A stretch of DNA of 64,000 nt from assembly GCA_020632155.1 (NCBI GenBank), contig JACKGE010000001.1, positions 220,011-284,010 on the forward strand, read 5' to 3'. A program made the translations under genes and the position numbers. Positions within the stretch are counted from its first letter, which is position 1, and each line of letters starts with the position of its first letter. The notes beneath the pieces were generated by a model, which saw only the letters and a program-made list of their open reading frames with translations, was not told the DNA's origin and searched no databases. Below, piece by piece: positions 9,053 through 25,875 of the stretch. The DNA comes from Candidatus Nomurabacteria bacterium. Its GTDB lineage: Bacteria > Patescibacteriota > Minisyncoccia > Phycocordibacterales > UBA918.

Positions 9053-9054
9053 GT

Positions 9055-9886: not shown

Positions 9887-10180
9887 ATGAATAAGATCAT
9901 CGTTCTTGCTGCTGCGGCAGCTCTCGCGCTTTCGGCTCGCACCGCCACCGCCGCCGACTACCTCGTGCAGGTGTCGACGACCGACGGAAAGGCACCCCTT
10001 TCTGTGACCATTCCCGGCTTCCAGGTCCAGAAGAAGGGGACCTTCAACTGGAACGGAAAGCGCTGGCGGAAGATCGTGGCGCGTGGCCCGGGCGTCCCTG
10101 CCAAGGTGTGCGATCACCAAGGCCGGTGTGTCCGTCTCACACGCAGTCCTCAGGGCGCTTACTCGGGCATCATGCAATGA
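9887..10180 (+). CDS. GC-rich small secreted protein (hypothetical)
   Basis: Internal ATG after an AGGGAG RBS gives MNKIIVLAAAAALALSARTATA signal peptide. About 62% GC versus about 40% in the flanks. Own terminator. Confidence 0.6.
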   Translation: MNKIIVLAAAAALALSARTATAADYLVQVSTTDGKAPLSVTIPGFQVQKKGTFNWNGKRWRKIVARGPGVPAKVCDHQGRCVRLTRSPQGAYSGIMQ

Positions 10181-10181
10181 C

Positions 10182-10214
10182 CCTCGTTCATGGGCGCAGC
10201 CAGCTGGCTGCGCC
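10182..10214 (+). terminator. rho-independent terminator
   Basis: GGGCGCAGCCAGCTGGCTGCGCCC hairpin followed by a T tract. Confidence 0.65.
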
Positions 10215-10386
10215 CGCCTTTTTATACTATGTCCAGACCTGATCAAAGTTTCAGGGTAGTTGTTTTGAGTGTAAAATTTTAAGCAGAAGGTCCTTGATAA
10301 AAGATGTACATAAAGGTATAGTGCACGCACTTTTGCTAACGTATCAACGAAAGTCGTACTCTCGTATGGTAATATACTAAGGCATC

Positions 10387-10459
10387 CGCCTGTAGCTCAG
10401 TTGGTAGAGCAGCGGCCTTTTAAGCCGACGGTTCGGAGGTTCGAGCCCTCCCAGGCGGA
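10387..10459 (+). tRNA. tRNA-Lys (anticodon TTT)
   Basis: Cloverleaf folded by hand. Acceptor CCGCCTG/CAGGCGG, D-arm GCTCAGTTGGTAGAGC, anticodon loop CTTTTAA, T-arm GGAGGTTCGAGCCCTCC. No encoded CCA. Confidence 0.8.
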
Positions 10460-10460
10460 C

Positions 10461-11291
10461 ATGAAGTCCTTCAAACAACAATGTATTGAGTTGCGAAAGA
10501 AGGACCATACCCTGAATGAAATAGTACAAATTACTGGTCGAAGTAAAACGACAGTGTACTTTCATATTAGGAACATTCCTCTAAGCAAACAAAAGCGAAA
10601 AAAAATAAGTGAAGCGACCCGATGGCGTGCCCTTCGAGTTGCTGCTGCTCGCAAAGGAAAAGCCTTGCGACCGTTCAAGCCATTTCAAAGCTGGACACCC
10701 GAACTCGTTCTATTAGTTTCCCACCTTATGTTTGACGGGGAAATAACCAAATCAAAGTGTCGTTACCATAATAGAAGTGCGGCCCTGATAAAAAGGGTGG
10801 AGGACTTAATGCAGCTTGTGTACGATTACAAGGGAACAAAAAATACCGATACTACAAGCGGTGTTGTTACCGTAAGTTTCCATAACGTAGAACTTGAAAC
10901 ATTTTTGAAAAGTAAATCAAAAGAACTGCTAAAAAACATTCATGTTTTTTCGAGATCTAAACAGACAGAATTCCTCCGCGCATTTTTTGATGACGAAGGA
11001 TGCATGGACGTACGTTTGAACAAAAGCCTGCGTCGTATTCGTGGTTATCAAAACGACCAAGAGATTCTTAAACTCGTAAAACTGCTCCTAAAAAACTTTG
11101 ATATTGAATCAAAACTCCGTAAACCTAATGAGGTTGTAATTTCTGGTAAGGAAAATCTACGGAAGTTTCAAAAGGAAATAAATTTCTCTAAAGGGGTTAG
11201 ACTAAATCCTAATCGGACGAATAGTATTTGGAAAAAAGATATCGAAAAAAGGGAGCTGTTAGATATTGCTATTAGATCGTACCAGATATAA
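10461..11291 (+). CDS. HTH-containing LAGLIDADG-type homing endonuclease-like protein
   Basis: ATG is immediately 3' of tRNA-Lys (the ORF-track TTG at 10401 would read through the tRNA). N-terminal HTH (LNEIVQITGRSKTTVYFHI). Two LAGLIDADG-like motifs (LVSHLMFDGEI and FLRAFFDDEGCMD). Confidence 0.5.
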   Translation: MKSFKQQCIELRKKDHTLNEIVQITGRSKTTVYFHIRNIPLSKQKRKKISEATRWRALRVAAARKGKALRPFKPFQSWTPELVLLVSHLMFDGEITKSKCRYHNRSAALIKRVEDLMQLVYDYKGTKNTDTTSGVVTVSFHNVELETFLKSKSKELLKNIHVFSRSKQTEFLRAFFDDEGCMDVRLNKSLRRIRGYQNDQEILKLVKLLLKNFDIESKLRKPNEVVISGKENLRKFQKEINFSKGVRLNPNRTNSIWKKDIEKRELLDIAIRSYQI

Positions 11292-11346: not shown

Positions 11347-11745
11347 TTAGAGCGGTAAATCAAACGCTGGTACTCCTGCACCGGTAACAAAGAGGGTTGT
11401 TGTGGCGCCAAGGAGTAAGAAATAAAACAATTTTTCTGGAATACTGGGATGAGAAAAATAGTTACGAAGCAGCAGTAATTTAATCGACATAGCAATCACT
11501 GCTAGAGCTGCATACTGGGTATGGGCGCCTGCAAGTAGTAGTAGCCCTAGCGACAGCTCACCAAGCGGTAATAGGGTAGCCACCAAGCGACCGTACGGAA
11601 ACCATGAGAGTCGCAGCACATGTTGTAATTCATCACGTACCCGCCAATGCTTGGTGCCAAGATGGAGCAGACAAACGGCGATAGTAACGCGCAATATAAA
11701 ATATGCAAACAAAGCGAGAAATTGAATGGGAAATGGATTCAGCAT
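11347..11745 (-). CDS. small polytopic membrane protein (DoxX-like?)
   Basis: Four hydrophobic helices. No clear motif. Confidence 0.35.
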   Translation of the reverse strand: MLNPFPIQFLALFAYFILRVTIAVCLLHLGTKHWRVRDELQHVLRLSWFPYGRLVATLLPLGELSLGLLLLAGAHTQYAALAVIAMSIKLLLLRNYFSHPSIPEKLFYFLLLGATTTLFVTGAGVPAFDLPL

Positions 11746-12518: not shown

Positions 12519-14193
12519 TCTCATTGGCATAGGTTGGAAGAAAATAGGTATCGGTTGTTTTATTGTACACAACGGTATTGGTGATGCGTTCCACAGCTTG
12601 GAAATATCCTAGGTGAGTGCCGGTGCGTGGTTCAAGTTCGTGCAAACGAGCGGCATTGGTTCCAACGTACAAACGGCCATTGATAACAGTCGGACTCGAA
12701 AAGATACGTGTTCCATCAACGAGTACATCAAATAGTAGAGACAAAGAGTCGAGATTGATAGCTCGAACGCGTTTGTCAGCAGCAGTAAAGTAAACAGTAT
12801 CTTGGTATATGTATGGGGTAGAGAATATGCCGAATTCACATTTATGGTGATGAACTAAATGTCCCGTTTTGCGATCCAAAATGTACAAAAATCCATCTAT
12901 TGCGCCAAATATTATGTAGTCGTGTTTTTGAGAGTATGTGAAACTTTCTTTTATGTCCCCATTACTGTAACCAATATGACCTGTCTCAGGTACGAAGTCA
13001 GCGGCACCGAAAGTAGTAAATTTCCAAAGCACATAACCGGTACGGGCATCATGAAGCCTCACCACTCCATCGTTGGAACCAATGACCACTTGCTTGTGCT
13101 CAGCAATATAGTGGGGAGAGCAATGAGTCATAGCCATGTGAGTACGGTCAATCCATTTAGGCTCGCCACTCGCTACATCAAGAGCAATAATGCCACCACG
13201 TTTATTTATCAACCCAAACTCAAGTCCAATAAAAACTAACCCAAGCTCTTGCGACACAGCAGGGGATGATCCTACCCAGTCAGCTTCAAAGCATATCCAC
13301 TTGACCGCTCCAGTATGTTTATCCAGACAGTACACATTTCCATCGTAGCTGCCAAATATGACCGTATTTTTATATAGTGCTGGGTTAGAGAAAATCGCTT
13401 TCTTTCTTTGTACACTCCCGACTTGATATTTCCAGGCTACCGAACCATCCGCTTGATTAATGGCCCAAAATGTCCGATTGTCCGAACCGAAGTATATCTT
13501 ACTGTCGTCAATCACTGGTTGTGATTTGTTAACTACCCATTCCAAACTTGGTTTTTCACTGCGGAATCCCCATAGGGTACTGAAAGGCATGGCGATAGAT
13601 TCAGGTACTGTTTTGAGGCGCGTTTGGGCTTCGTCGCCAAGACTGTCAGCAAACTCATCGAGCGTAAATAATGACCGCACTTTTATTCCTCTCTGGTAAA
13701 AGCGCTTGTAGTAGGACTCATCTTGGTATCTGAGTATTGCCCAAACGGTATCGACAGTGTACCCATAATACTCTAGTACTTCTATTTGTCGCCAAAAGGT
13801 ATTGCCAGAGTTTATAACATCGTCAACAAGAATGATCTTTTTGTGTTCCTCAAGGGAGCCTTCTATCATTCGGGTCATTCCAGTCTTTTTTCTAGACTTT
13901 CGTATAAAGACAGCGTTACTGTCGGCGTGTCCTTGGGCGTAAAACTTGTTCATTAAAGATGTGGCGAGAGGTACGCCAGCTATCTCCTGTGCACAAATTT
14001 GAAACGGGTACTCAGTGTGAAACTGTTCATAAAATATGCTAGCGATGATATCAGCAGCTTTGCCGTTCATTAAGATCTCTCGAAAATTGAATGTCCATGC
14101 ACTGGGATCAGTTTGCATGGCTAATTGACCGTTCGTGTTTTTGAATATCACGTGATCTTTAATGATATTTCTTAGTGTTTCCAAGTCACTCAT
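12463..14193 (-). CDS. phosphoribosyltransferase domain fused to PQQ-like beta-propeller repeats
   Basis: N-terminal type I PRTase PRPP loop (KIILVDDVINSGNTF). C-terminal repeated YxGSxDGxxYxxDxxTGxxxW blades. Confidence 0.55.
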   Translation of the reverse strand: MSDLETLRNIIKDHVIFKNTNGQLAMQTDPSAWTFNFREILMNGKAADIIASIFYEQFHTEYPFQICAQEIAGVPLATSLMNKFYAQGHADSNAVFIRKSRKKTGMTRMIEGSLEEHKKIILVDDVINSGNTFWRQIEVLEYYGYTVDTVWAILRYQDESYYKRFYQRGIKVRSLFTLDEFADSLGDEAQTRLKTVPESIAMPFSTLWGFRSEKPSLEWVVNKSQPVIDDSKIYFGSDNRTFWAINQADGSVAWKYQVGSVQRKKAIFSNPALYKNTVIFGSYDGNVYCLDKHTGAVKWICFEADWVGSSPAVSQELGLVFIGLEFGLINKRGGIIALDVASGEPKWIDRTHMAMTHCSPHYIAEHKQVVIGSNDGVVRLHDARTGYVLWKFTTFGAADFVPETGHIGYSNGDIKESFTYSQKHDYIIFGAIDGFLYILDRKTGHLVHHHKCEFGIFSTPYIYQDTVYFTAADKRVRAINLDSLSLLFDVLVDGTRIFSSPTVINGRLYVGTNAARLHELEPRTGTHLGYFQAVERITNTVVYNKTTDTYFLPTYANEIIALKRDGDSALDTKEVK

Positions 14194-14325
14194 AGTCGGT
14201 AGTATATATGCTTTAGTATTCTTGGTAAAATTAGTCTAACTATTCGCACAAAATGCACAGGCATTTCTTTACACCTCGGGTGTTTTTTTGGTGTAGCTCG
14301 CGTGATAATATGTCAGTAAATCAGT

Positions 14326-15621
14326 ATGGTTGCTCTTAAAAAGTTATTGTTAGCCACGGGTCTTCTTTTGTTCGTGTTTATTCTTGCTGTAGTAGCTTGG
14401 TATTACTATTACTCGGTTCAAAAGTCACCCCCTACCTCCATTAACAATAAACTGTATTACTCTAAGGTAGCGGAAGACATATTTGTCGCTGTGGAGAGTT
14501 TTAGAAACGATGGTGCTACTGATGAAGAATTCTTGCGTTTCACCGAAGAGCAAGTAAGACAGTTAGATATGGACACACTGTATCCAATAGATCGCGCTTG
14601 GATGGAGCTCTTACTGGCTAGAGCTAAAGAAAAGATAGACCGCGATGCTGCTCTCCTAGGCTATGCAAAAGTTTATAACAAACCCGAATATGAACAGTTG
14701 TGGACTGTTAGGGGCAGTGCTTTAGCCTCAGCCATGTTGTACGCAACTGAAGTTGGCTCACCCCGCTTGAGCTTAGCGGAAGCCAAAGAATTAATCTTTA
14801 AACCGGATTTGTTTGGTCGTGCAGTAGGGATTGACTCAATAGACGAACTGAATCAAATAGAGACTGAGGAGGAACTTAGGTTATTGGTAGGCATTGGATT
14901 AGAAAAAGCAAGCCCTAACATTTTGTCTAAAGCTCGTGAGATGAGACTCGAAGTGGAGAGCCTCTTGCTTCAGTCTGGGACTATTTTAGAAAGATTGTAT
15001 AATAGTAATGATTCTGTCGAATTTACCTCAACTGAGGCCACGTCTCATCTCAACGAACACTTAGAACTTCATGCACAATACGATAGTATCAAGGAGCGAG
15101 CTGACGCACTAAATGCCGCAATACCAATTGTTATTTCCGACCGAAGCATATACTCATCTGAGGTACTTTACACACTAAACTATTTACAGCGTCTCTACAC
15201 CCAGCTGTTGTTTGTCGGATATGATGTGATGCCGTCCATACTTAACATGCATGAGTACTTGTCCGTTTACATCAATTTACATGGTAATGAACATGAGTTT
15301 GCTTTAGAAAGAACAAATATTATTCGAGCCAGCTCGGACTATCGCTTAGTGTGTGCGTTGATACTAGTGAACCAACAAGAAGGTGGAGATACGAACAAAC
15401 TTTCGGCTGAGAATGTTCTATTGAAGAGCCTTTACGATCTTTCGGAAGATGAACTCAGAGCTAACGGCTCGTTGCTTATTGACGCCGCCAAGAGGCCATA
15501 TTATCCTTGTCACCAAGCCTTTTTGACTCTTGGCAGAGAAAACCAAAGATTTGCTGATTTTTTAGTAAAGAATGTCGGAGGTTGGTCGTATGAACAATTT
15601 ACTTCGCCTAAAACCAATTAA
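14326..15621 (+). CDS. TOMM-cluster partner protein A1 (N-terminal TM anchor; paralog of 16068-17384)
   Basis: One N-terminal TM helix. Conserved blocks shared with its paralog: SALASAMLYATEVGSP, ILYTLNYLQRLYTQ, DAAKRPY.PC. The stop lies 10 nt before the precursor peptide. Confidence 0.6.
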   Translation: MVALKKLLLATGLLLFVFILAVVAWYYYYSVQKSPPTSINNKLYYSKVAEDIFVAVESFRNDGATDEEFLRFTEEQVRQLDMDTLYPIDRAWMELLLARAKEKIDRDAALLGYAKVYNKPEYEQLWTVRGSALASAMLYATEVGSPRLSLAEAKELIFKPDLFGRAVGIDSIDELNQIETEEELRLLVGIGLEKASPNILSKAREMRLEVESLLLQSGTILERLYNSNDSVEFTSTEATSHLNEHLELHAQYDSIKERADALNAAIPIVISDRSIYSSEVLYTLNYLQRLYTQLLFVGYDVMPSILNMHEYLSVYINLHGNEHEFALERTNIIRASSDYRLVCALILVNQQEGGDTNKLSAENVLLKSLYDLSEDELRANGSLLIDAAKRPYYPCHQAFLTLGRENQRFADFLVKNVGGWSYEQFTSPKTN

Positions 15622-15631
15622 TGCCTAGATT

Positions 15632-15955
15632 ATGATAAAAAGAAAGACCAAAAAATTTTTATATATACTTAGTGCACTAGTTAGCGTAGTGTTTGGTTAT
15701 ACCATCGGCAAAGATCATGCCGATTATACAAACTTCACGGCCGGCGACGTTTTTTTCAAGGAAGCCCAGGCTGATGTCCCACCACCTCCTTCGTGTGGAG
15801 GGGACACATATAGCTGTGGCGGCGGTGATGATGATGGTGGCTGCGGTGGCTGCGGCTGTGGTTGCGGCGGCGGTGATGATCATGGGGGCTGTGCTTGTAG
15901 TTGTGGTGCACCAGACTGTGGTCAGTGTGGGTCACCAGGCGATGAGCTTTATTAG
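15632..15955 (+). CDS. RiPP precursor peptide 1 (microcin B17-like Gly/Cys-rich core)
   Basis: 107 aa. N-terminal K-rich segment plus hydrophobic leader, then conserved GKDHADYTNFT, then a core rich in G/C/D/S (11 Cys, runs such as CGGCGCGCGGG) ending in GDELY. Confidence 0.6.
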   Translation: MIKRKTKKFLYILSALVSVVFGYTIGKDHADYTNFTAGDVFFKEAQADVPPPPSCGGDTYSCGGGDDDGGCGGCGCGCGGGDDHGGCACSCGAPDCGQCGSPGDELY

Positions 15956-16067
15956 TTCAGTCTCCCTAAACACTCGAAGTGAGATTTACACATGTTGTTC
16001 CGTAGTCCCGATGATTACTATCATTGTTGTGACTAAGTGTACGTGTTAGCATGTCTATGGTCTGATT

Positions 16068-17384
16068 ATGCGCAAGGTTAATAACTTTTTACGTCTCCTC
16101 CTACTCGTCCTTGCTTTATTGATGGTAGTGGTGATTGTGGGTATCGGGTTACTCTTTTTAAAAACACAATCAAACCCTCCGTCAGTTAATAACAAAGAAT
16201 TATATCTCAGTGATACAATCGCCACACTCCTTCAGTCTGCTCAAGAAAAACAAAATGAAGGCGTACCACCTGAAGACATCTTAGCCACTGTCGAGGCTCA
16301 CCTTGCTGAAATTGATGTTCAAGCATTAGCGCCAGTGGATCAGGCTTGGATTGCTCTAGAATGGGCTAGAGTTCACGAACCGATTGATAGAGATATGGCG
16401 CTACTTGAATATGCACGAATATACAATGAACCATCATACGAGTCGTTCATGCCGGTTCGTAATAGTGCTCTGGCTTCAGCCATGTTGTACGCAACCGAAG
16501 TAGGTTCACCGAAGTTATCTTTTATAGATGCCAAACGATTTATCTTCGCACCCGATCTATTTGGCCATGTAGTTGGCATTGATACACAACAAGCCCTCGA
16601 CGCTTTAAAGAGTGATGAAGACCTGCGATTGTTAGCTAGTATCGGGCTGAATCTTTCCAGTGGAGGTATGTTATCGTCCGCCCGTGAGTATCGATTGCAA
16701 GTTGAAAGCTTATTGTTGAAGTCAGAGCATTTGTTGTATCAACTGTACGAAAAAGATACGTCGATTGATTTCATTCCGATTGTTGCACAGCAAAGGTTAG
16801 GCCAAGACTCCTCAATACAAAAACAATTCGAAGAAATCTTTGCTCAAGCAAATAGTATTTTGACGGATCTTCCAGCAAATATCGCACGTCGTAACGCATA
16901 TGTTTCAGACATTCTATATACTCTCAACTATTTACAGCGCCTGTACACGCAGTTTGTTTTTATAGGATATGATGCCCTCCCGCCACTTGATACCTCTAGA
17001 CAGCTACTCAATTCGTACGTAATTACTCATCAGGACGACCATTCCTTTGCTGCACAGCGATCAAATGTCATCTTGGCTAGTTCAAATTATCGCTATGCTT
17101 GTGCATTGGTGATTCGAGACGAATTGGACGGTCAAGAACAATCTGTAGACAGCCGGATCATACGTTCGTTACTCGACGACATACGACAACTTTCAGAAAC
17201 AGACATTGAGGCAGGCAAATCACTTTTAGCTGACGCTGCTAAGAGACCATATTTGCCTTGTTCATACGCCTCAGTGGTAATCGGGACCGTTTATGACCCC
17301 TCCTTTGCTGATTTTCTGGTCGATGAAGTAGGGACATGGAGTCGTGATCAGTTTATGACCCCTAACGATGGTGCTAGTATATAA
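16068..17384 (+). CDS. TOMM-cluster partner protein A2 (paralog of 14326-15621)
   Basis: Same architecture and the same conserved blocks as A1, at about 45-50% identity by eye. Translationally coupled to peptide 2. Confidence 0.6.
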   Translation: MRKVNNFLRLLLLVLALLMVVVIVGIGLLFLKTQSNPPSVNNKELYLSDTIATLLQSAQEKQNEGVPPEDILATVEAHLAEIDVQALAPVDQAWIALEWARVHEPIDRDMALLEYARIYNEPSYESFMPVRNSALASAMLYATEVGSPKLSFIDAKRFIFAPDLFGHVVGIDTQQALDALKSDEDLRLLASIGLNLSSGGMLSSAREYRLQVESLLLKSEHLLYQLYEKDTSIDFIPIVAQQRLGQDSSIQKQFEEIFAQANSILTDLPANIARRNAYVSDILYTLNYLQRLYTQFVFIGYDALPPLDTSRQLLNSYVITHQDDHSFAAQRSNVILASSNYRYACALVIRDELDGQEQSVDSRIIRSLLDDIRQLSETDIEAGKSLLADAAKRPYLPCSYASVVIGTVYDPSFADFLVDEVGTWSRDQFMTPNDGASI

Positions 17385-17391
17385 TTAAAGT

Positions 17392-17670
17392 ATGTTGCAA
17401 AGAAAAACAAAACAAGCCATGTATCTTGTGGGTGCCCTTGTGGGGATCGTGTTTGGATACGTGGTAGGTAAAGATCATGCAAATTACGCCAGCTTTACTC
17501 CAGAAGACCTCTTTTCGAGTGAGGCGAGTGCAGACACACCAAGTTGTGGTGGTGGAGATGCCAGTTGCACACCAGGTGATGACGATAGTTGTGCTGGTGG
17601 CGGTTGTAGTTGTGGTGACGCATGTGGCGGTTGTAGTTGTGGTGGAGGACAGGGTGACGAGCTCTACTAA
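17392..17670 (+). CDS. RiPP precursor peptide 2 (Gly/Cys-rich core)
   Basis: 92 aa. Leader homologous to peptide 1 (GYVVGKDHANYASFT). Core SCGGGDASCTPGDDDSCAGGGCSCGDACGGCSCGGGQGDELY, 8 Cys. Confidence 0.6.
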   Translation: MLQRKTKQAMYLVGALVGIVFGYVVGKDHANYASFTPEDLFSSEASADTPSCGGGDASCTPGDDDSCAGGGCSCGDACGGCSCGGGQGDELY

Positions 17671-17690
17671 TAACTCGTTCCAACCGAGGT

Positions 17691-18917
17691 ATGTTTTTTA
17701 AGGAAGAGTTTAGGTTAAGTTTTATTCTGCAAGTGGCCTTGGCAGCCCTAGTTTTTTGTTATTTCATGGTCTTTGCTGATTGGGTGTCTCGATCAGCCAT
17801 AACACTTGATTCGGTCATTAATCATGCAGCACTGTGCCCAACTTATTTCCAGTCGTGTGAAAGTCTATACTTTTTGCGTGCACTCCCTGATGGATATTCC
17901 CAGAGCATGTGGTACATGCTCTTGTTTGGGAGTCTTATAGTAAGCGCTTACTTTCTCATCTGCCGCCGGTGGAGTGAAGCCCAGTGGATACTTTTGCCCG
18001 CATATGTGTGGCATACGCTAAATGTATTTGTACTTACGTATTACGGTAGTGGAAATTATGAATACTACGTCTTTGTTTTCGGCACGATTCTATTCTTTTT
18101 TCCACATAAAGAATTCTTTTTAAAGCTGACCCTAGTTCTGTTCTACGTCATGTCTACTGCCGCTAAAATCCATCCAGCATGGATAGCAGGAGGATACTTC
18201 ACGAACATGAGCTTAGGCCTCCCTGTCTTTCCTGAGTGGTCAATACCACTATTTACTAATCTTGTTATTGTGATGGAAATGGTCGGGGCATGGTTTTTGC
18301 TTTCAAAACATCCCCTCGTGCAGCGCACGGTCCTTTTATTTTTTGTAATCTTTCACCTCTATTCCGGTGTGTTGGTTGAATACCGCTATCCTGCTACGGT
18401 GTTGCCCATGCTTCTTATTGCCTTTGGTCCATGGTACCGTTATCAAAAGCCGCCATTAGATAAGAAGTCTGTCATTGGTTGGACGTTCATCGGCTTACTG
18501 TGTATTTTGCAACTTACTCCAAAAATGGTTGTGGGTGACGAAAAACTCACTCTTGAGGCGAACAAGTACGGCCTCTATATGTTCGAGTCCAATCATCAGT
18601 GCATCGTATCGGCTGAGTATATCTACACCGACGGACACGTAGACACATATATGGAAGTACATAACAATCCTCGCTTCCGCTGTGACCCATACATGTTTTG
18701 GTATCGATTCAACCATGTGTGTGAACAGGACCCCCGTCTTTCTCGCATCGCTTGGACCTTTGACCACTCCATTAATGGCGACCCCTTCTTACGTATTGTT
18801 GACACTGATAACGCCTGCGACCTAGAATACAAACCTTTCTCCCATAATGAATGGATCAAGACGTATACTGACAACCCTGAAGTGATCGGTTGGCCGGCAC
18901 AAAATGATTATCACTAG
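17691..18917 (+). CDS. HTTM-domain (vitamin K-dependent gamma-carboxylase-like) multi-pass membrane protein
   Basis: About 9 TM helices in the first 280 aa plus a soluble C-terminal domain. The segment LRALPDGYSQSMWYMLLFGSL resembles the VKGC/HTTM block [24 protein letters not shown]. Confidence 0.45.
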   Translation: MFFKEEFRLSFILQVALAALVFCYFMVFADWVSRSAITLDSVINHAALCPTYFQSCESLYFLRALPDGYSQSMWYMLLFGSLIVSAYFLICRRWSEAQWILLPAYVWHTLNVFVLTYYGSGNYEYYVFVFGTILFFFPHKEFFLKLTLVLFYVMSTAAKIHPAWIAGGYFTNMSLGLPVFPEWSIPLFTNLVIVMEMVGAWFLLSKHPLVQRTVLLFFVIFHLYSGVLVEYRYPATVLPMLLIAFGPWYRYQKPPLDKKSVIGWTFIGLLCILQLTPKMVVGDEKLTLEANKYGLYMFESNHQCIVSAEYIYTDGHVDTYMEVHNNPRFRCDPYMFWYRFNHVCEQDPRLSRIAWTFDHSINGDPFLRIVDTDNACDLEYKPFSHNEWIKTYTDNPEVIGWPAQNDYH

Positions 18918-20061
18918 AAGCAAAAGACATACGATGCTATGCGCCTTTGTGTGTGGACTTTTTTTTGCGCTTAGTGGTAGTTATCTATACACACTCATTG
19001 CTAATAGAGCCGTTACACCCGAAGTGCGTCCGGTTGTGTATGATAGAGAGCAACTGGCTAACGGAACGATCTACACAACCCTTGGTAATCAACAGGAGTT
19101 CAATCAAAAGTATGCTCACCAGCGGCCATATTTATTGGAGCTGGCCGCAGATGGCACTTTGGTTTGGTCTGAGTCGACCGAGAGTACTCCATTTCATTAT
19201 CAACGACTACCTAATGGTACCAAGGTATACGCCCTACATGATATTGACAGCAAGCGGTGGTCTGCACACTGGCATGTAATAGAACCTGATGGCTCAAAAC
19301 ACATTGTTCAAAGCCAAGAAATTGACCATACTGACTTTCATTTTTTATTACCGACTCCAACTGGAGAGTTTTGGGTACCAGGGTATAGATTGCAAGAATT
19401 AGAAGGACAAAAGGTAGAGTCTTTATGGCTTGAGTTGCAGAATCAGGCAGGTGAGGTGATGCAGTCATGGGATAGTTTGTCACATGTGAGTTTAGATTCA
19501 ACGCAGGCCACAGAAACACGAAAATATTGGCTGGAGCACGATATCAATGATTATTTTCACGGTAACAGCGCCACTTACGCACTCGATGGTGCACTTCTCA
19601 TCTCGGCTCGCAATACCAACCAAATATACAAGGTAGACCCCCAAACCGGTGAGGTAGTTTGGAGGTTGGGAGGGAAGGACAGCGATTTCAATATAATAGA
19701 TGATCCTCTCGGTGGTTTTTCTCATCAACATACCGTTAGCCAGTTAGGAAACGGGAATATACTTCTTTTTGACAACGGCAATCTACACCAACCGCAACAG
19801 TCTCGCGTTGTAGAGTACCAGCTTGATGAAGAGGCGATGACCGCTACGTATGTTTGGTCGTATACCGAAGCTGGTCGGTTTTCGTACGCGGCTGGCTCAG
19901 CTCAGCGGCTACCAAACGGCAATACGTTCATTAGTTGGGGGCTCGAGGTTGATGAGTCAAGTGGTAAAGCCAAAATAACGGAGGTCTCTCCGTTGGGAGA
20001 GAGGGTGCTGGAGATTTTTTTTGCTCCTGAGGTATTTTTCTACGACGCCTTCAAGCTATAG
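18904..20061 (+). CDS. arylsulfotransferase (ASST)-like beta-propeller protein
   Basis: N-terminal signal/anchor. ASST-family blocks FHGNSATYALDGALLISARNTNQIYKVD..GEVVW and HQHT....GNGNILLFDNGN. Confidence 0.55.
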   Translation: MIITRSKRHTMLCAFVCGLFFALSGSYLYTLIANRAVTPEVRPVVYDREQLANGTIYTTLGNQQEFNQKYAHQRPYLLELAADGTLVWSESTESTPFHYQRLPNGTKVYALHDIDSKRWSAHWHVIEPDGSKHIVQSQEIDHTDFHFLLPTPTGEFWVPGYRLQELEGQKVESLWLELQNQAGEVMQSWDSLSHVSLDSTQATETRKYWLEHDINDYFHGNSATYALDGALLISARNTNQIYKVDPQTGEVVWRLGGKDSDFNIIDDPLGGFSHQHTVSQLGNGNILLFDNGNLHQPQQSRVVEYQLDEEAMTATYVWSYTEAGRFSYAAGSAQRLPNGNTFISWGLEVDESSGKAKITEVSPLGERVLEIFFAPEVFFYDAFKL

Positions 20062-20092
20062 AAAAACCGCCGACTACTGCCGACGGTTTTTG
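20060..20092. terminator. bidirectional terminator-like hairpin
   Basis: AAAAACCG...CGGTTTTT stem between convergent genes. Confidence 0.5.
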
Positions 20093-20116
20093 ATTGGACG
20101 GAGGCGAAGACCCGAC

Positions 20117-20440
20117 CTACTTGAAGACTTGGACTTGGTCGTCCTTCTCTCCATTTTTGTCTCGGGTCGAGAAGGTCACCTTATACTTCCCGCCGCCGAT
20201 ATCCTTGATGTTGATGGCGGCGCGGCCACCGGGCCAGCGTATCCGCCAACGGCCGTCCTTGACGCGGTCGGCCGTGTAGCACCGCCCCTTGTGGCAGTAG
20301 ATCGCTTTCTGGGCAGACACGACTCGCACCGAGGCGGCGCTGCCGTCGTTCCAGCGGCCGGAAGCTTTCTCACCGGCGGTTGCGGGAGCGGCTGCCAAGG
20401 CGGCAGCGATGGCAGCGACAACAAAGAACGCACGTTTCAT
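20117..20440 (-). CDS. GC-rich small secreted protein (hypothetical)
   Basis: MKRAFFVVAAIAAALAAAPATAGE signal peptide. About 63% GC. Sits between the ASST-like gene and sagB-like. Confidence 0.55.
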   Translation of the reverse strand: MKRAFFVVAAIAAALAAAPATAGEKASGRWNDGSAASVRVVSAQKAIYCHKGRCYTADRVKDGRWRIRWPGGRAAINIKDIGGGKYKVTFSTRDKNGEKDDQVQVFK

Positions 20441-20507
20441 GGGACTCTCCTTTCCCTATGTTGTGATGGTCAATTTATAACACAAATATATAATTTTTGC
20501 AACACGC

Positions 20508-21212
20508 TTAGTTTGAAAGAGTGAAAGTGTAGATTGGCTGTTCATCAAAAGGATCGAGCTCCAATACGTCGGTAATCTTTTCATCACGAAAGCCACCAAT
20601 AGGGCAGAAATGTAGGTTGGCCGTCTCAGCCGCTAAAGACAGATTTTGTCCAATATGACCTGCTTCTAGTAAGCAGAGATCATAAGCAAAATCAGAATAT
20701 TTTGGCGTATTTCGACTCCAGCGTGCGGTGAGAATTATGACTGCGAGTGCCTCGGTTTCGATGTCGGCTTTAAAGAGATCGTTAGTCGTTAGCTTTAGTG
20801 GCAACTCCCATAGTCTTTCCAAGACGTGCTCTTTGACTTGGTAATGGTACAGTGTTGGCCGAGCATCCGTCTCAAGCCGCGTACAAAGGTAGCATTCAAC
20901 GGGGTAAAAGGAACCGCCTGATGGGTATGGTCGGTGGTGATCCTTATGTTCTCGTAAGGCGAGACCAAACAGTGTTCCCAGTTGTTGGGGAGTTGGGTAG
21001 ATAGATGTGTCCGACCGGCGTCTTGACCGCCTCTTTTGTAGTAGTTCAACAAATGTATCAGTTGAAACGGGGTCTGGTAGTGGAATTTTTAGAAAACGGG
21101 GGTAGGTCTTACTCTGCTGTATTGCTGGCCAGAGTGATTCTGACGTGGCTGTTTTGCCTTTGTTAGTTCGGCGAATATATTGATGGATTCTAAGTGGCGT
21201 AAGGTTAAGCAT
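20508..21212 (-). CDS. SagB-type (TOMM) FMN-dependent dehydrogenase
   Basis: RRSRRR, YPSGGSFYPVECY and LLEAGHIGQNL..C.IGGF blocks typical of the SagB/ThcOx nitroreductase-fold family. The start is 9 nt after the ycaO stop. Confidence 0.8.
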   Translation of the reverse strand: MLNLTPLRIHQYIRRTNKGKTATSESLWPAIQQSKTYPRFLKIPLPDPVSTDTFVELLQKRRSRRRSDTSIYPTPQQLGTLFGLALREHKDHHRPYPSGGSFYPVECYLCTRLETDARPTLYHYQVKEHVLERLWELPLKLTTNDLFKADIETEALAVIILTARWSRNTPKYSDFAYDLCLLEAGHIGQNLSLAAETANLHFCPIGGFRDEKITDVLELDPFDEQPIYTFTLSN

Positions 21213-21220
21213 ATTGGTAT

Positions 21221-22669
21221 TTAAGCAAAAGGATGTGGGTAGGCTGTAAAGGGTGTAGGTAAAGATTGGTAACCAAATTTTTCTGGTACAGCGGATAGAC
21301 GTTTTCCCGTTACGTATGGTACACGTTCGTTTTGATGCATGGGTTGTAAATCAGGCATGACCACCATTTCAATATTCCAAGGAGACACGTTTCTTTTTGT
21401 TGAACCAACTGAGACTGAACATAGTTCGTAATTATTGTTCCTAGCCCAATTAACTATTCTTCGTAAATGATCACTCTCGGAGTCAGCCTCCCAGTTCTCG
21501 CTTGGGTTTGGTTCACTGGAGTCTGTTCCAGAAAGGAAGTACATATTACTAACTTGTTGAGGCTCAGCCCAGTAGTCCAATCGTTCAAGGTGGTTCAACT
21601 TCGACCCGTCTCTTTTTACAGATTGCTTGCCAGTACGAGACTGCCGATTCCTAATGGTTTGGCGTATGCGCAACGCTTCGAGCAGGGCTCCCTCAACGGC
21701 CGTACTCAAGCTATTATGCGCTTTAAGTCCTACCGTAAAAGCAGGAACATGTTCATGAGTGTCTTTGAGACTGGCACAAATTGCGTACGTTGGCGCATCT
21801 GTTACCATTCGAATTGCTGAAGGTTCAAGCTGGTATTTCTTGCACAACTCGAGTAGGCGTTGCAATTTTGGTGAAGTGTGAGCCAGATCAAGAAGGTTAA
21901 GTCTTGGTAACTTGAGTTGGTTGAGCCAAAGTATCATATAGGCATCACGTTCAATCACTTCTAGTGCTCCAGCAAGAACAGCTCCCTCACGTGTTGGCCA
22001 TGTTGCAAGACCGGTCGTAATCGGCATAAGGAGTATCGGCTCACGAGCGAGTTTTTTGTCACGGCAGCTATTGACCAGCTGGGCGGGCAAGTACAGCTGC
22101 TTCCCAGTGGTCCATGACTGACCCAAGGTCCAAGTGAATTTACTATCTGGAGCAAAAGAAAGCCGTCCATATTTTTCTCGTTGCTCTTTTGAGACGCCAG
22201 TTATTTGGTCCGGTGAGATGAACGAAATGGATTTTTTTTGCATCTCGTTTATGCTTGCGTACATTGGTTTTTTAAAATAGGAAGTGTCTTCAAACCATAA
22301 ATATCTTTCCACTGCTTCAGCCAAGGCAGCGATAAAGGCATCATAATCGCTGTCTATGGACATACCGCCGGCCCGTTGATTATCATGTGTGCCGCATGTC
22401 ACTGCCCAGTGGTATTGCAAGGGCTCATCATGGTAGCCAGTGATGGGACGATAGTTTTTTATTAGTTTGGCCTCAATCAGTTGTTGTGCTATGGAGAATA
22501 AAGGAATGAGATCTGTTCTTCCATAGGGTATATAGTTAGCATCGACTGTAACAGACGCATTAAAGTATTTTTCAATAAATGTTATCAAGGCTAACTTCGC
22601 ATCATCCGAAAATCCTTGCCTTCGTTTCCTAATAATCTCCGTTAACAGTAACGTATCGTGCATGACCAA
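21221..22669 (-). CDS. YcaO-domain cyclodehydratase (TOMM D protein)
   Basis: AEAVERY, ITTGLATW and ALEVIERDA motifs (ATP/Mg binding, ExxERD). C-terminus YPHPFA, like the PxPxP tail of azoline-forming YcaOs. Confidence 0.85.
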   Translation of the reverse strand: MVMHDTLLLTEIIRKRRQGFSDDAKLALITFIEKYFNASVTVDANYIPYGRTDLIPLFSIAQQLIEAKLIKNYRPITGYHDEPLQYHWAVTCGTHDNQRAGGMSIDSDYDAFIAALAEAVERYLWFEDTSYFKKPMYASINEMQKKSISFISPDQITGVSKEQREKYGRLSFAPDSKFTWTLGQSWTTGKQLYLPAQLVNSCRDKKLAREPILLMPITTGLATWPTREGAVLAGALEVIERDAYMILWLNQLKLPRLNLLDLAHTSPKLQRLLELCKKYQLEPSAIRMVTDAPTYAICASLKDTHEHVPAFTVGLKAHNSLSTAVEGALLEALRIRQTIRNRQSRTGKQSVKRDGSKLNHLERLDYWAEPQQVSNMYFLSGTDSSEPNPSENWEADSESDHLRRIVNWARNNNYELCSVSVGSTKRNVSPWNIEMVVMPDLQPMHQNERVPYVTGKRLSAVPEKFGYQSLPTPFTAYPHPFA

Positions 22670-22689
22670 TCGATTGTAACAGTATTATT

Positions 22690-23154
22690 TTGGGCCTACA
22701 AGATTCGGTGACAATTGGTAGTGACATGGCTACGCATGCTGGTTACAATGGTCTCTGTAGCATGAACAGACTTCCACCTTGTACGGTTTTATATCAAGGC
22801 AATTGTACCTTTTGTCGTTGGTGTATGAGACTGGTACTCAAAAACAGTCGAGAAGGGATGTTTACATTCATCCCGATTGAAAGTGAGGAGGGGAAGGCTC
22901 TCATTAAAGAGGGGTCTCTATCGATAAACCCTGAACATCCAGACAGTATTGCAGTATTAGTGTCTGACGAGAAGGTTTACTATAAATGGCAAGGTGGAGT
23001 AGAAATTGCTCGTCACACAACGTTTCCGTTTCGGTTGGTGTATTTTGTTGCGATGATGGTGCCGAGTTTTTTGGGAGATCGTATATATGACTGTATTGGT
23101 CGTCATCGGGCTCTGCTGTGTCGGTTGGTCCGATGTCGCCAAAGGCAGTCATAG
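22690..23154 (+). CDS. DCC-family (DUF393) thiol-disulfide oxidoreductase
   Basis: LYQGNCTFCRWC CxxC motif near the N-terminus and the downstream family pattern. The real start is probably the M of MNRLPPC at about 22762. Divergent from ycaO. Confidence 0.6.
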   Translation: MGLQDSVTIGSDMATHAGYNGLCSMNRLPPCTVLYQGNCTFCRWCMRLVLKNSREGMFTFIPIESEEGKALIKEGSLSINPEHPDSIAVLVSDEKVYYKWQGGVEIARHTTFPFRLVYFVAMMVPSFLGDRIYDCIGRHRALLCRLVRCRQRQS

Positions 23155-23207: not shown

Positions 23208-23573
23208 TTAGCGAAGATCTGGGTTTGGGTCAGTGCAGACGTCGATGAGGTATTTTCCGCTCAACCACTCGCCATCTAGGTGACCACTCACCTCCACCAC
23301 GTAACGGCAGGGCGTTTCGGGGAAGTCCAACGACAGCGTGTCGTTGTACCGGACTTCCGTACCGTTAAAGTCAACGCCCTGCCAAAGGTCATCGGCAGCA
23401 ACCTCGGGACGCAGCCGGACCTCTGTCCAGTTGACGGGCGTGTGGTTGGTGAAGACCACCCTAGTCATCTGTCCGTCATTGGTAGAGACGGTCGGTGTCG
23501 CCGCCAGCGCTGAGGCGGTTGCCAGCAAGCTGGCGATTATAGCGTGAAAGAACGATCTCATGATCTCCTCCAA
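23208..23573 (-). CDS. GC-rich small secreted protein (hypothetical)
   Basis: Signal peptide MRSFFHAIIASLLATASALAATP. About 62% GC. TTG or ATG start ambiguity. Confidence 0.5.
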   Translation of the reverse strand: MEEIMRSFFHAIIASLLATASALAATPTVSTNDGQMTRVVFTNHTPVNWTEVRLRPEVAADDLWQGVDFNGTEVRYNDTLSLDFPETPCRYVVEVSGHLDGEWLSGKYLIDVCTDPNPDLR

Positions 23574-23712: not shown

Positions 23713-24060
23713 TCAGAAGTTCATGAAGTGCAGGTGCGAAGCGACGACGTAGCGGCCGTCGAGTTCGACGAGGCCGAAACTGGCTCCACCCTCGCGGTGA
23801 GCCGTGCGGGCCGCCTGTTCGAGCAGTCCGATGTCGCTGTCGGGGTAGACCTGCATATGGCAGGCGCCGGCGGCGATGAGCGGCTCGAGGACCGACAGGA
23901 AGGCCGAATCGTCGGCCTCGGCCTGCAGGGACGGCGTATTCAGAGCCGACCCCATCAGAGCGCCGGCGTCGGTGACGTTGTCACAGGACACAATCTCGGC
24001 GGCCGCGGCGGGGAAGGCGCACGCGGTGACGATAAGAACGGATGCAAGAATCTTCTTCAT
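23713..24060 (-). CDS. GC-rich small lipoprotein / secreted protein (hypothetical)
   Basis: MKKILASVLIVTAC lipobox-like signal. About 66% GC. Confidence 0.5.
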   Translation of the reverse strand: MKKILASVLIVTACAFPAAAAEIVSCDNVTDAGALMGSALNTPSLQAEADDSAFLSVLEPLIAAGACHMQVYPDSDIGLLEQAARTAHREGGASFGLVELDGRYVVASHLHFMNF

Positions 24061-24192
24061 GGGGACCCCATTTGGTTGGTTTGATTCTGGCGATATTGCC
24101 GTTAGCTATACTACTACAAATAGGTAAAATGTCAACCTCAAAAAGGGCAGTTATACAATAACGTGATATTGGCTAGGCACAGAAAGGGTATA

Positions 24193-25875
24193 ATGAGGCC
24201 AATGAAAACGTATTTGGTATCCGTGCGCGACTTCATCTGGCGCCATCCGTTGTTGATAGCTCTTGGTGGGTTGGCGTTTGTCGCTCTCTATGTATGGAGC
24301 GAGAGTTTTGGTGTCGCAACTGGTTCGTGGCTGCCGGCAGTATTTGGCCTTGGCGGCCAAAGCGGTTCCCAGTCGGGTAGTTCTAGTTCATCAACTGGTG
24401 GCTATTCGACTTACTCAGGTAGTCGTGGAACCTATGGCGGCCGCATGACCCAAACTGAGTTTGGTGACTATGCTGAGAGAGACGGAGCCGATGTGTATCA
24501 TTATGATGGTTACTCAAAAGCGTATTATTCTGATGGCTCGACATCATCTTGGAGCAGTTCCAGCTCCTCCAGTCCATACTTATTGGTTTGGAACGGTAAG
24601 CGTTATCTGCATGAAAATGATTTCTTGTTTGGTAAGCCCACCACTGTATTTACTGATTATGCAGAAGGGTATACGGCGTACCGACGAGGTATTGGCGGTG
24701 ACTCGTATTTGGTACGCCTTCCAGTCGTGGAAGAAGACGGGAAACTTCGCTTCCAAATTCGAGAGATAGAACCAGAAGAGTCATTTATAGACCGATTTTG
24801 CTTACAGGCTATTGATTTACATCCTGACCAGATACCGATTGTCGACGGTTCGCTTGGCTGTGTACATGTATTTGACGCCAAGACAGCCAGCCTCGTAGCT
24901 GATCAAACCGTGCAACACTACCACCGTAATACAAACACCGTATCAGTTCAGACCTTTGCTGATAGTAAGGTACTGCGTGTACACGACCGCGGGGGTTCCA
25001 TGTTAGAGACTGGAGATGAAATCATCATTCAGATACCTCGAAAAGATCTGACCGAGGAAGCTTTGTATGTAGTGGTGGATTCCTACTTTAGAGATTGGAC
25101 ACTAGGTGAAACTGTACCCTTTTCATATCAAGATCGTCTCCTCATCTATTCTCGTGGTACGGCTCGTAAGTTGGCTACAACTGCCGCAGGGGTGAGTTTA
25201 CTCCTTGCCGGTATGGCAGTGACACAGACCGTGTCCGGTCACGCACTCCAGAATATCCTTGCTACTCCCTACGCCAATGCAGATGTTCCACCACCACCAC
25301 CGACGAGTGGTGGTGGAGGAGGAACAAGTTGTGGGGGTATGACAACGGCCTGTTCGTCAAAATCTCTAGAGGTGAGTGTGATGATTGGTGGCCGGCGTAT
25401 TTTGCTACAGACACTCTTTCCTCGACTGGTACAGGCTTCAAAAGAAGTGGTGTGTATACCAAAGGATCTTGTACAGAGTGTTGCAGACGAAGTCATTACA
25501 ATTTGCATTAAAGCTACCAAGCGCCACCAGGTCACGTTTGCCGGTGTTATGCAGGGGCAGGCAGTTTTAGCCGAACCGACCTTGTTAGGTAGACAGACAG
25601 TGGTACATACGCGGACAGGACAAGATGTGTCAGAGAAAATACGCCAAAAGAATGAAGACTTCCTCCATATTGTGCCAGGTGATACCTACGAGGTTACCGT
25701 GTCTGATATGCCTACTGTAGCGACTGGCCTACAGCGCCACATTCTTCTCAGTACCAATGGTTTTTATACGCGACTATCAGAAGCAACAAAGAGGCGCATC
25801 GGCGCTAATTGGTATCGTACATTAGCTCCTGAAGACAAAGCCATTTTGCGCAGCCTTAAACAAATAGGTGTTTAG
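24193..25875 (+). CDS. membrane-anchored hypothetical protein with Ser/Gly-rich linker
   Basis: ATG after an AAGGG RBS (the ORF-track GTG is at 24163). TM helix, a low-complexity GSQSGSSSSS stretch, and a PPPPPTSGGGGG linker. Confidence 0.45.
   Translation: MRPMKTYLVSVRDFIWRHPLLIALGGLAFVALYVWSESFGVATGSWLPAVFGLGGQSGSQSGSSSSSTGGYSTYSGSRGTYGGRMTQTEFGDYAERDGADVYHYDGYSKAYYSDGSTSSWSSSSSSSPYLLVWNGKRYLHENDFLFGKPTTVFTDYAEGYTAYRRGIGGDSYLVRLPVVEEDGKLRFQIREIEPEESFIDRFCLQAIDLHPDQIPIVDGSLGCVHVFDAKTASLVADQTVQHYHRNTNTVSVQTFADSKVLRVHDRGGSMLETGDEIIIQIPRKDLTEEALYVVVDSYFRDWTLGETVPFSYQDRLLIYSRGTARKLATTAAGVSLLLAGMAVTQTVSGHALQNILATPYANADVPPPPPTSGGGGGTSCGGMTTACSSKSLEVSVMIGGRRILLQTLFPRLVQASKEVVCIPKDLVQSVADEVITICIKATKRHQVTFAGVMQGQAVLAEPTLLGRQTVVHTRTGQDVSEKIRQKNEDFLHIVPGDTYEVTVSDMPTVATGLQRHILLSTNGFYTRLSEATKRRIGANWYRTLAPEDKAILRSLKQIGV

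Follow-up and report, generated by a model that had tools for sequence, protein, structure and literature searches.

What does a bacterial locus do when it places genes expected to serve azole formation beside a membrane protein that resembles a human vitamin K-dependent enzyme? This question is raised by a 64,000-nucleotide stretch of contig JACKGE010000001.1 (positions 220,011 to 284,010, forward strand; assembly GCA_020632155.1) from a Candidatus Nomurabacteria bacterium, hereafter the window. Here, two small Gly/Cys/Ser-rich peptides (P1 and P2) are encoded close to a YcaO cyclodehydratase, a SagB-type dehydrogenase and a multi-pass membrane protein of 408 aa with a predicted carboxylase fold. 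A preliminary description of the region took it for a microcin B17-like thiazole/oxazole-modified microcin (TOMM) system with unusual accessory enzymes. We argue instead that the locus is, on balance, probably a composite of two modules acting on one family of membrane-anchored, low-complexity peptides, in which the YcaO/SagB pair is a plug-in found where the peptide tails carry cysteines.

The window was compared with related public loci and contigs (numbered L001, L004, L082 and so on). A YcaO profile scan of GTDB genomes returned 76 loci, and a carboxylase-fold profile scan of metagenomes returned 80. Neighborhood counts are restricted to loci of at least 12 kb, namely 35 YcaO-centered (Patescibacterial) and 30 carboxylase-centered loci.

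A family of precursor peptides with an N-terminal membrane helix

P1 and P2 are built alike. A basic N-terminus leads into a membrane-type helix of 18-19 residues, which a linker of ~18 residues joins to an A-x-A/D motif (the slash marks the junction); a Gly/Cys/Asp tail follows and ends in GDELY. The motif is AQA/D in P1, whose 60-residue tail includes 11 Cys and 20 Gly, and ASA/D in P2, whose tail of 45 residues includes 8 Cys and 14 Gly. A family profile made from related loci matches P1 with an E-value of 6e-7 and P2 with one of 4.6e-6, and the precursor in L004 is a homologue of P1. Both of the precursor-like peptides that had been proposed earlier are thus real family members, and their sequences indicate that they belong to a large Patescibacterial family of membrane-anchored peptides. 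The helix is flanked by a charge of +3 to +4 before it and of -2 after it; hydropathy and charge together suggest a precursor inserted in the membrane with the N-terminus on the inside and the tail on the outside.

Within the Patescibacterial clade, the commonest junction is VAHAD/AP and the general motif is A-x-A-[DE]. When a detection rule independent of cysteine was used, the AHAD motif was found in 25 of 69 distinct precursors. In a Kaiserbacteria subgroup, acidic tails with Asp runs end in a conserved G-D-E-[LY]-x C-terminus. The preliminary description had named a lack of precursor co-conservation in related genomes as something that would count against its assignment, and this is not what the loci show: precursors are adjacent to YcaO in 27 of the 35 Patescibacterial loci, and the cysteine content of their tails tracks YcaO (see below). 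In a screen that required cysteine, most precursor copies lie within 100 nt of YcaO and are divergently oriented from it. In more distant YcaO loci, which come from Gammaproteobacteria, Chloroflexi and archaea, the precursors are short, Cys-rich and of an ordinary kind that lacks a membrane helix.

In public gene calls, P1 is placed in a wrong overlapping frame (110 aa, L001 8245-8577) and P2 is started at an internal Met (74 aa, L001 6651-6875), so that automated annotation hides these precursors. Three public contigs match the region at >99.7% identity, and the YcaO of the window is 100% identical to an NCBI protein on assembly GCA_020428955.1. A 27-nt in-frame indel in the P2 tail (GDACGGCSC) separates the window from metagenome contigs (L001 6651-6902, L002 6194-6445) and is essentially their sole difference over ~12.5 kb (L002 has one further gap), which suggests that this repeat-like core varies between close strains or assemblies.

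Just outside the cluster (24163-25875, + strand), a 570 aa membrane protein has an internal membrane helix followed by YANAD/VPPPPPTSGGGGGTSCGG, a junction that mimics EAQAD/VPPPPSCGG in P1. Homologues of this protein occur near the carboxylase-fold module in L082 (585 aa, E 1.5e-90), L006 (with AHAE/VPTSSSGSSG) and L041.

A YcaO/SagB pair without a recognizable leader-binding partner

The YcaO protein matches PF02624 (E 7.3e-40) and has ExxER motifs at 118 and 237 and a PxP-type C-terminus ending in YPHPFA, in agreement with the preliminary description. Its SagB-type dehydrogenase is likewise borne out, with 113.8 bits against TIGR03605 (cut-off 78.4) and an E-value of 1.3e-18 for PF00881. 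Against TIGR03604, the SagD family, the YcaO aligns over the full model length with 180.5 bits, which is below the cut-off of 219.25. The public gene call of YcaO begins two codons later than the 482 aa form. Its AlphaFold2 model (predicted local distance difference test score, pLDDT, 90.5) is structurally closest to LynD, MusD and TruD, heterocyclases that form azolines (E 9e-23 to 2e-17), and McbD is matched with a Foldseek E-value of 1.6e-12. The closest solved relatives of SagB are the azoline oxidases CyaGox (1.5e-13), BmdC (1.7e-11) and McbC (3.7e-8), and its K-Y motif is present as TPKYSDFAY. A SagB-type gene is adjacent to YcaO in 74 of 81 loci. Strong homology thus points to the identity of both genes.

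Many Patescibacterial genomes (L007, L009, L015, L030, L031, L034 and L036) have two or three YcaO/SagB copies within 20 kb, in some cases with a separate precursor and TPR gene for each copy, and L030 also has a 1074 aa YcaO-containing open reading frame (ORF).

Azoline-forming YcaO proteins usually need a partner with a RiPP (peptide made by the ribosome and modified after translation) recognition element (RRE), an E1-like domain or an Ocin-ThiF-like domain. The YcaO of the window stands alone, with no E1-like or RRE domain fused or adjacent to it, and Pfam and NCBIfam scans detected none of these three domains in any cluster protein, as the preliminary description had surmised in noting no recognizable E1-like C protein. 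The N-terminal extension of YcaO was considered as a hidden RRE and rejected on its predicted secondary structure: residues 1-66 are predicted, with low confidence, to form strand-helix-helix-strand-helix, unlike the beta3-alpha3 arrangement of an RRE.

Cysteine content of the tails varies with the presence of YcaO

Tails were collected with the Cys-independent detection rule, and loci were classed as lacking YcaO when none was present within the 4-10 kb of sequence on each side. Tails within 6 kb of a YcaO gene (n = 43) have a median of 4 Cys, or 12.3% of residues, whereas tails in loci without YcaO (at least 4 kb of sequence on each side, n = 11) have a median of 0 Cys, or 1.0%. The difference has a Mann-Whitney p of 1.6e-6 with genomes treated as independent, a value that overstates independence because the genomes are related. 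On one contig (L030/L143), a 22-Cys tail lies ~3 kb from YcaO and a 1-Cys tail lies elsewhere in the stretch. Taken together, this covariation is the best evidence in the sequences and supports the action of YcaO/SagB on these tails.

It also bears on the suggestion that the YcaO/SagB pair modifies some other protein, such as a housekeeping target, and that the small Cys-rich ORFs encode surface or metal-binding peptides with no connection to it. The YcaOs of E. coli and archaea do act on proteins rather than on RiPPs, many genomes have the locus next to the EF-Tu/S10 operon, and the TIGR03604 score is below its cut-off. However, this suggestion leaves unaccounted for the covariation itself, the closeness of precursors to YcaO in most Patescibacterial loci of the Cys-requiring screen, the accompaniment of azoline formation by SagB-type dehydrogenases, and the azoline heterocyclases that are the best structural matches of YcaO. 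We regard it as highly improbable.

Anchored TPR proteins and a carboxylase-fold module that mostly occurs without YcaO

Each precursor gene in the window directly follows a gene for a ~430 aa protein (A1 or A2), with gaps of 10 nt (A1-P1) and 7 nt (A2-P2). In A1, which is 43% identical to A2, residues 7-25 form a membrane segment whose N-flank is positive, and an all-helical TPR-like domain follows. In a profile-profile comparison (hhalign), A1/A2 match family f2, of which they are remote members, with a probability of 94.3% (E 1e-7, 306 columns). Comparison of the A1 profile with families f15 and f7 gave no match, and a word-indexed homologue search with A1 returned only itself and one fragment. 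The combined A/f2 alignment has a single N-terminal membrane helix and then a helical domain, and TPR models of Pfam match 6 of its 30 members. Because their N-flanks are positive, A1 and A2 should face outward. An A/f2 gene lies within 64 nt after the precursor in 33 of 53 precursors, and A/f2-type proteins are also paired with Cys-free peptides in loci without YcaO. These observations argue against the proposal that the 430 aa pair substitutes for an E1-like C protein, since the proteins are anchored, TPR-type, predicted to face outward, and present with Cys-free peptides where YcaO is absent.

In L083, which lacks YcaO, another and larger anchored TPR protein comes after each precursor-TPR pair (8504-9925 and 13060-14436; 473 and 458 aa). 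These have a Cys-rich C-terminal domain that is absent from the proteins of the window.

The gene for the 408 aa carboxylase-fold protein has a set of regular neighbors: the small membrane protein TM92, a fusion of a phosphoribosyltransferase (PRTase) with a beta-propeller, a DCC1-like protein, an A/f2 TPR protein, and Cys-free A-x-A-D peptides with Gly/Asp/Tyr tails. YcaO is present in only 5 of the 30 carboxylase-centered loci. In L082, L083 and L085, all without YcaO, the carboxylase-fold gene occurs with the DCC, PRTase-propeller, TM92 and anchored TPR-type genes and with Cys-free peptides such as AHAD/HDYAQSYYQSYYQ...GDDDGDGDDGDG; a Cys-free tail in L083 reads TAHAD/HDYAQSYYQSYYQSYYQGYYQ...GDDDGDGDDGDGDDGDGDGG. 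The A/f2 profile did not match the 492 aa anchored TPR-type protein of L085. Together with the covariation of cysteine and YcaO, these loci indicate that the carboxylase-fold/TPR/DCC set has an azole-independent job. The HTTM and DCC proteins, which had been taken for TOMM accessories, are thus better placed in a separate and more widespread module.

The most constant neighbor of the carboxylase-fold gene is TM92, whose profile matches 24 of the 30 carboxylase-centered loci. Its N-terminal part is soluble and contains the motif YIVLEGLDP, a single membrane helix lies at its C-terminus, and neither Pfam nor NCBIfam gave a match; in L004, L082, L083 and L085, a TM92-like small gene adjoins the one for the carboxylase-fold protein or the PRTase. 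The PRTase-propeller is present in 24 of the YcaO-centered and 18 of the carboxylase-centered loci. Its propeller matches PF13360 (E 6.8e-28) and PF13570 (132 bits), and its PRTase part scores close to the cut-off of PF00156 (25.9 bits versus 26.3) and below that of TIGR00336, pyrE (72.5 versus 106.8). Orotate phosphoribosyltransferase (OPRT) and BamB chains are matched in the PDB, and the protein has no membrane segment. It is a candidate cytoplasmic partner, possibly the one that YcaO lacks, or else a mere syntenic neighbor.

The DCC protein matches PF04134 (E 4e-15, 57.5 bits versus a cut-off of 27.8), with its CxxC in YQGNCTFC, and a homologue adjoins the carboxylase-fold gene in L004, L082, L083 and L085. 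The family and CxxC assigned to it earlier therefore stand, but its start is most likely 22825 (109 aa, as in L001) and not 22690. The arylsulfotransferase (ASST)-like assignment is equally secure, with matches above cut-off to PF05935 (E 2.7e-26, 92.9 bits versus 24.2) and PF14269 (E 3.4e-26, 92.8 versus 27), a match to the PDB sulfotransferase 9kf4 (E 5e-28) and an anchor at residues 10-28. The first 14 nt of its gene are also the last 14 nt of the carboxylase-fold gene. No ASST was found in any of the 35 YcaO-centered or 30 carboxylase-centered loci, so this protein would represent a lineage-specific extra step.

No membrane segment was detected in YcaO, SagB, DCC or the PRTase-propeller, and N-terminal anchors were detected in A1, A2, ASST and a 107 aa protein downstream of SagB. 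On hydropathy and charge, the first group is predicted to be cytoplasmic and the second to be anchored or secreted.

These results weigh on the explanation closest to the preliminary description, according to which the locus encodes a single secreted, microcin B17-like antibiotic TOMM that the HTTM, ASST and DCC proteins tailor and for which the 430 aa proteins replace the E1-like C protein. A YcaO/SagB pair beside Gly/Cys/Ser-rich cores is what this explanation expects. The genes are contiguous, several being translationally coupled, and Sharrar et al. (PMC7298704) interpret YcaO/nitroreductase clusters in the candidate phyla radiation (CPR) as clusters for linear azol(in)e-containing peptides (LAPs). 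However, neither the cluster nor its flanks contain a McbB-like partner, an exporter or an immunity gene, the 430 aa proteins have the predicted outward topology and the YcaO-independent distribution described above, and the carboxylase-fold/DCC module is mostly found without YcaO; the loci that lack YcaO weaken this explanation in particular. Vertical conservation and synteny, often near ribosomal genes, are also unlike a sporadic antibiotic cluster. With no McbB/E1-like partner, no ABC exporter and a leader that appears to be a transmembrane anchor, the label "microcin B17-like" does not hold, and an antibiotic of this kind seems distinctly unlikely.

In many carboxylase-module loci, the EF-Tu/S10-L3-L4-L23-L2 operon is the immediate neighbor. 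That the module is kept next to core ribosomal genes in many Patescibacteria suggests a cell-surface or host-interaction role in these uncultivated episymbionts rather than a sporadic antibiotic. In L084, a carboxylase-fold homologue (10001-11269) on a contig of 1.3 Mb has none of the usual neighbors, and a nearby 95 aa ORF ends in GFGDDGDGDDGH.

The 408 aa protein is predicted to have the fold of vitamin K-dependent carboxylase

The 408 aa protein has no Pfam, NCBIfam or PDB sequence match, even at E<=10. Pfam and NCBIfam scans of twelve of its relatives up to the same E-value likewise gave no match to PF05090 (HTTM), a profile search of PDB sequences found nothing, and its 479 database relatives are all annotated as hypothetical and domain-free. 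An exhaustive profile search of 1.84 billion representatives found only 693 related cluster representatives, so that the family appears closed and separate from Pfam HTTM. An AlphaFold2 model built with 32 relatives (pLDDT 85; predicted template modeling score, pTM, 0.85) was compared with known structures, and two independent fold searches converge on the human vitamin-K-dependent gamma-carboxylase (GGCX). In Foldseek, 14 of 14 significant PDB matches are human GGCX (E 3.5e-8 to 1e-6, query TM-score 0.58-0.64), and the next match has an E-value of 0.44. In the predicted model, the match spans the membrane and the luminal (C-terminal beta) domains. On this model, the assignment of the vitamin-K-dependent gamma-glutamyl carboxylase fold holds. 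Because only structure prediction matched, the earlier HTTM, VKGC-like guess was right at the level of the fold and wrong at the level of hidden Markov models (HMMs).

Four Cys are invariant in the C-terminal domain of the family and two in its first loop; these would fit an extracytoplasmic location. With a GGCX sequence checked residue for residue against the PDB, a profile alignment places the invariant K159 (motif AAKIHPAWIAGGY) on the catalytic K218 of GGCX (motif VKKLDADWVEGYS), in a weak alignment (hhalign probability 4%, E 0.01). The motif common to both neighborhoods is K-[IL]-xxx-W-[IV]-x-G. In the same weak alignment, the position of GGCX His160 corresponds to Tyr in the 408 aa family.

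The chemistry of this protein could be Asp/Glu carboxylation, SdpB-like processing or a linaridin-like role. In the first case, it would be a true quinone- and O2-dependent carboxylase that converts Glu or Asp of the tails into gamma-carboxy-Glu or beta-carboxy-Asp, yielding cation-binding surface peptides, with DCC as a VKOR-like reductase. The extent of the fold match, the Lys in its local motif, the strongly acidic tails with Asp runs and the conserved C-terminus of the Kaiserbacteria subgroup, and the recurrent adjacency of a CxxC protein to the carboxylase-fold gene are all consistent with this possibility. It is set back by the unconserved His160 position and by the lack of an HTTM signal in Pfam. 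In addition, CPR bacteria generally lack quinone biosynthesis and aerobic respiration, the Leptospira homologue has epoxidase activity but is not known to act as a carboxylase, and the bacterial HTTM proteins of sdp and linaridin systems are not known carboxylases. A true carboxylase is quite improbable.

In the second case, the carboxylase-fold protein and DCC would act like SdpB and SdpA, as non-redox processing or export factors that mature a signal-bearing pro-peptide. If SdpB is HTTM-like and SdpA DCC-like, the two would mirror the carboxylase-fold/DCC pair; the parallel is weakened by the finding that the DCC and 408 aa proteins match no Sdp model of NCBIfam (at E<=0.1 for the window and E<=0.01 for L082, across all NCBIfam families). 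In the precursors described here, an N-terminal signal for export or anchoring is combined with an A-x-A motif. The SDP toxin arises from the signal-peptide-bearing SdpC by processing for which both SdpA and SdpB are needed (PMC6818787), and HTTM-domain proteins also occur in linaridin clusters (PMC9927463). We consider Sdp-like maturation possible, if doubtful.

A proposed composite pathway and the points that weigh against it

Returning to the composite reading, the homologies and predicted compartments of the proteins lead us to propose three stages: thiazole formation, insertion or export, and processing in the envelope. In the cytoplasm, the first module, stand-alone YcaO with SagB, would turn Cys (and possibly Ser) of the tail into thiazol(in)es. 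This would have to take place before the tail leaves the cytoplasm, and the peptide would then be inserted or exported with its N-terminus in and its tail out. In the envelope, the cognate anchored TPR protein would bind the peptide (A1 for P1, A2 for P2), and the carboxylase-fold enzyme, assisted by TM92 and DCC, would modify or process the acidic tail, with A-x-A/D as the likely cleavage or recognition site. The ASST-like propeller, translationally coupled to the carboxylase-fold gene, would add the lineage-specific step, its target perhaps being the Tyr phenol of the C-terminal DELY. This second module would be the older and more widespread of the two in Paceibacteria/Kaiserbacteria.

A stronger version would posit a conserved envelope pathway in which the carboxylase-fold enzyme modifies tethered acidic peptides with TPR chaperones, for instance by carboxylation of Asp or Glu, and in which an RRE-less YcaO/SagB plug-in reads the anchored leader and writes thiazoles. 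We think this version unlikely. If true, it would provide a new class of YcaO leader and the first bacterial peptide-modification pathway of carboxylase type, with perhaps a central part in how these episymbionts organize their surface.

Several points weigh against the composite reading. We infer azole formation, topology, cleavage at A-x-A/D and the activity of the carboxylase-fold protein alike from sequence, and cytoplasmic enzymes could not reach the tail if it were exported co-translationally. The A-x-A motif lies 15-25 residues past the helix, farther out than a canonical signal-peptidase I site. Other points are the missing RRE, E1-like or Ocin-ThiF-like partner, the relatedness of the genomes behind the p-value, and a class without YcaO that reaches only 4-10 kb on each side. 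The association of the PRTase-propeller, and indeed of the module as a whole, may owe something to a conserved order of genes near the S10 operon and not to function alone. Finally, the K159-K218 alignment is statistically weak, and His160 has no counterpart in it.

Gene layout and neighboring features

All ten ORFs named in the preliminary description exist at or near the coordinates given there (Table 1). The span of 14326-23154 proposed for the unit begins too late, as the TM92 and PRTase-propeller genes belong to it. GC content across the region is 0.41-0.47, compared with ~0.49 for the whole window, so the region is richer in AT as claimed, but only mildly. An Rfam scan found tRNAs only, and promoter and terminator scans scored no better than shuffled sequence.

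Table 1 Genes of the locus, with positions in the window and the basis of each assignment.
Feature	Position	Strand	Basis
TM92, small membrane protein, 92 aa	12240..12518	+	profile, synteny
PyrE-like PRTase / BamB-PQQ beta-propeller fusion, 576 aa	12463..14193	-	Pfam, PDB
A1, anchored TPR-like protein, 431 aa	14326..15621	+	profile-profile, hydropathy
Putative precursor P1, 107 aa	15632..15955	+	sequence, family profile
A2, A1 paralogue, 438 aa	16068..17384	+	profile-profile, hydropathy
Putative precursor P2, 92 aa	17392..17670	+	sequence, family profile
Multi-pass membrane protein with predicted vitamin-K-carboxylase fold, 408 aa	17691..18917	+	predicted structure
ASST-like beta-propeller, 385 aa, N-terminal anchor	18904..20061	+	Pfam, PDB
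Small signal-peptide protein, 107 aa, downstream of SagB	20117..20440	-	hydropathy
SagB-type flavin mononucleotide (FMN) dehydrogenase, 234 aa	20508..21212	-	TIGR03605
YcaO cyclodehydratase, 480-482 aa	21221..22669	-	PF02624
DCC1-like thiol-disulfide oxidoreductase, 109 aa form, divergent from YcaO	22825..23154	+	PF04134

The 107 aa protein has a signal-like segment at residues 4-22. It is one of three small signal-peptide proteins (20117-20440, 23208-23573 and 23713-24060, all on the - strand) that lie in GC-rich patches (0.51-0.56, compared with 0.41-0.47 around them). L004 has a secreted 121 aa protein at the equivalent position, with no significant similarity, and no relatives of the small secreted proteins (107, 121 and 115 aa) were detected beyond the same strain.

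A DoxX/MauE-like membrane protein (11347-11745, - strand; PF07681, E 1.4e-5) adjoins the cluster, and one relative of the carboxylase-fold protein has a weak MauE match. In several related loci, a rhodanese and a DsbA-like thioredoxin lie beside the TPR gene. These neighbors hint at thiol or sulfur redox chemistry at the envelope. Farther from the cluster, a 296 aa ORF (10401-11291, TTG start) with a LAGLIDADG_3 homing-endonuclease-like domain begins within a tRNA-Lys (10386-10460).

Comparison with known systems

Sharrar et al. (2020, mBio; PMC7298704) describe 110 LAP clusters in 93 CPR genomes, 51 of them Parcubacteria, and report a nitroreductase gene in 89 clusters, as given in their account of these clusters. 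Like the window, the clusters described there combine YcaO, a nitroreductase or SagB-type gene and a small Cys/Ser-rich precursor; the example shown is from Microgenomates, with a peptidase and an 84 aa precursor. A CPR cluster of YcaO and nitroreductase is thus not new as such, and neither is a TOMM in this lineage. In the same account, we found no mention of an anchored leader, the A-x-A-D motif, TPR partners, a carboxylase-fold protein, the PRTase-propeller or Cys-free relatives without YcaO. A wider literature search likewise found no description of an anchored leader, the A-x-A-D motif, TPR partners, Cys-free relatives or a Patescibacterial carboxylase-fold protein, and searches on vitamin-K carboxylase in Patescibacteria and azoles in Parcubacteria returned nothing beyond that paper. 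The anchored precursor family and the carboxylase-fold module therefore appear to be undescribed.

Microcin B17 shares with the window a Gly/Cys/Ser-rich core (McbA), a YcaO (McbD) and an FMN dehydrogenase (McbC). However, its McbB (E1-like and leader-binding), McbEF exporter and McbG immunity gene are absent from the window, which is thus not of microcin B17 type. The microcin leader is a short soluble helix, whereas the leader here is a predicted transmembrane anchor, and the YcaO is structurally nearer to cyanobactin heterocyclases than to McbD. Should the tails carry azoles, the locus would represent a YcaO system with a transmembrane-anchor leader and no recognizable leader-binding partner, which would challenge the rules used in genome mining and engineering.

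Linaridin clusters (for example, crdG in corynaridin) resemble the locus in having an HTTM-type membrane protein in a RiPP cluster without a dedicated leader protease, and differ in their Thr-rich cores, which become dehydrobutyrines, their alpha/beta hydrolase partners and their lack of anchored acidic tails. In sdpABC of Bacillus subtilis (paralogue yitPOM), a precursor with an export signal likewise needs a multi-pass membrane protein and a small partner. In contrast to the window, SdpC is 203 aa, the product is its hydrophobic C-terminal 42-mer, and YcaO is absent.

Human GGCX (PDB 9bum, 9bvk and 9l21, among others) has the overall fold that is predicted for the 408 aa protein and, in the weak alignment, a similar local motif around its Lys; its substrates, like the candidate ones here, have an acidic segment after a recognition segment. 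The two differ in that identity is 13-16%, the 408 aa protein is ~350 residues shorter, and the host lineage is not known for quinones. For specialists, an anchored leader, an absent partner and a carboxylase-fold family whose candidate substrate is encoded alongside would be unexpected. The second module offers a tractable bacterial family with the predicted fold of human vitamin-K carboxylase and, adjacent to it, the gene of a candidate substrate, in a lineage presumed to be quinone-free, and hence a direct route to ask what this fold does outside animals.

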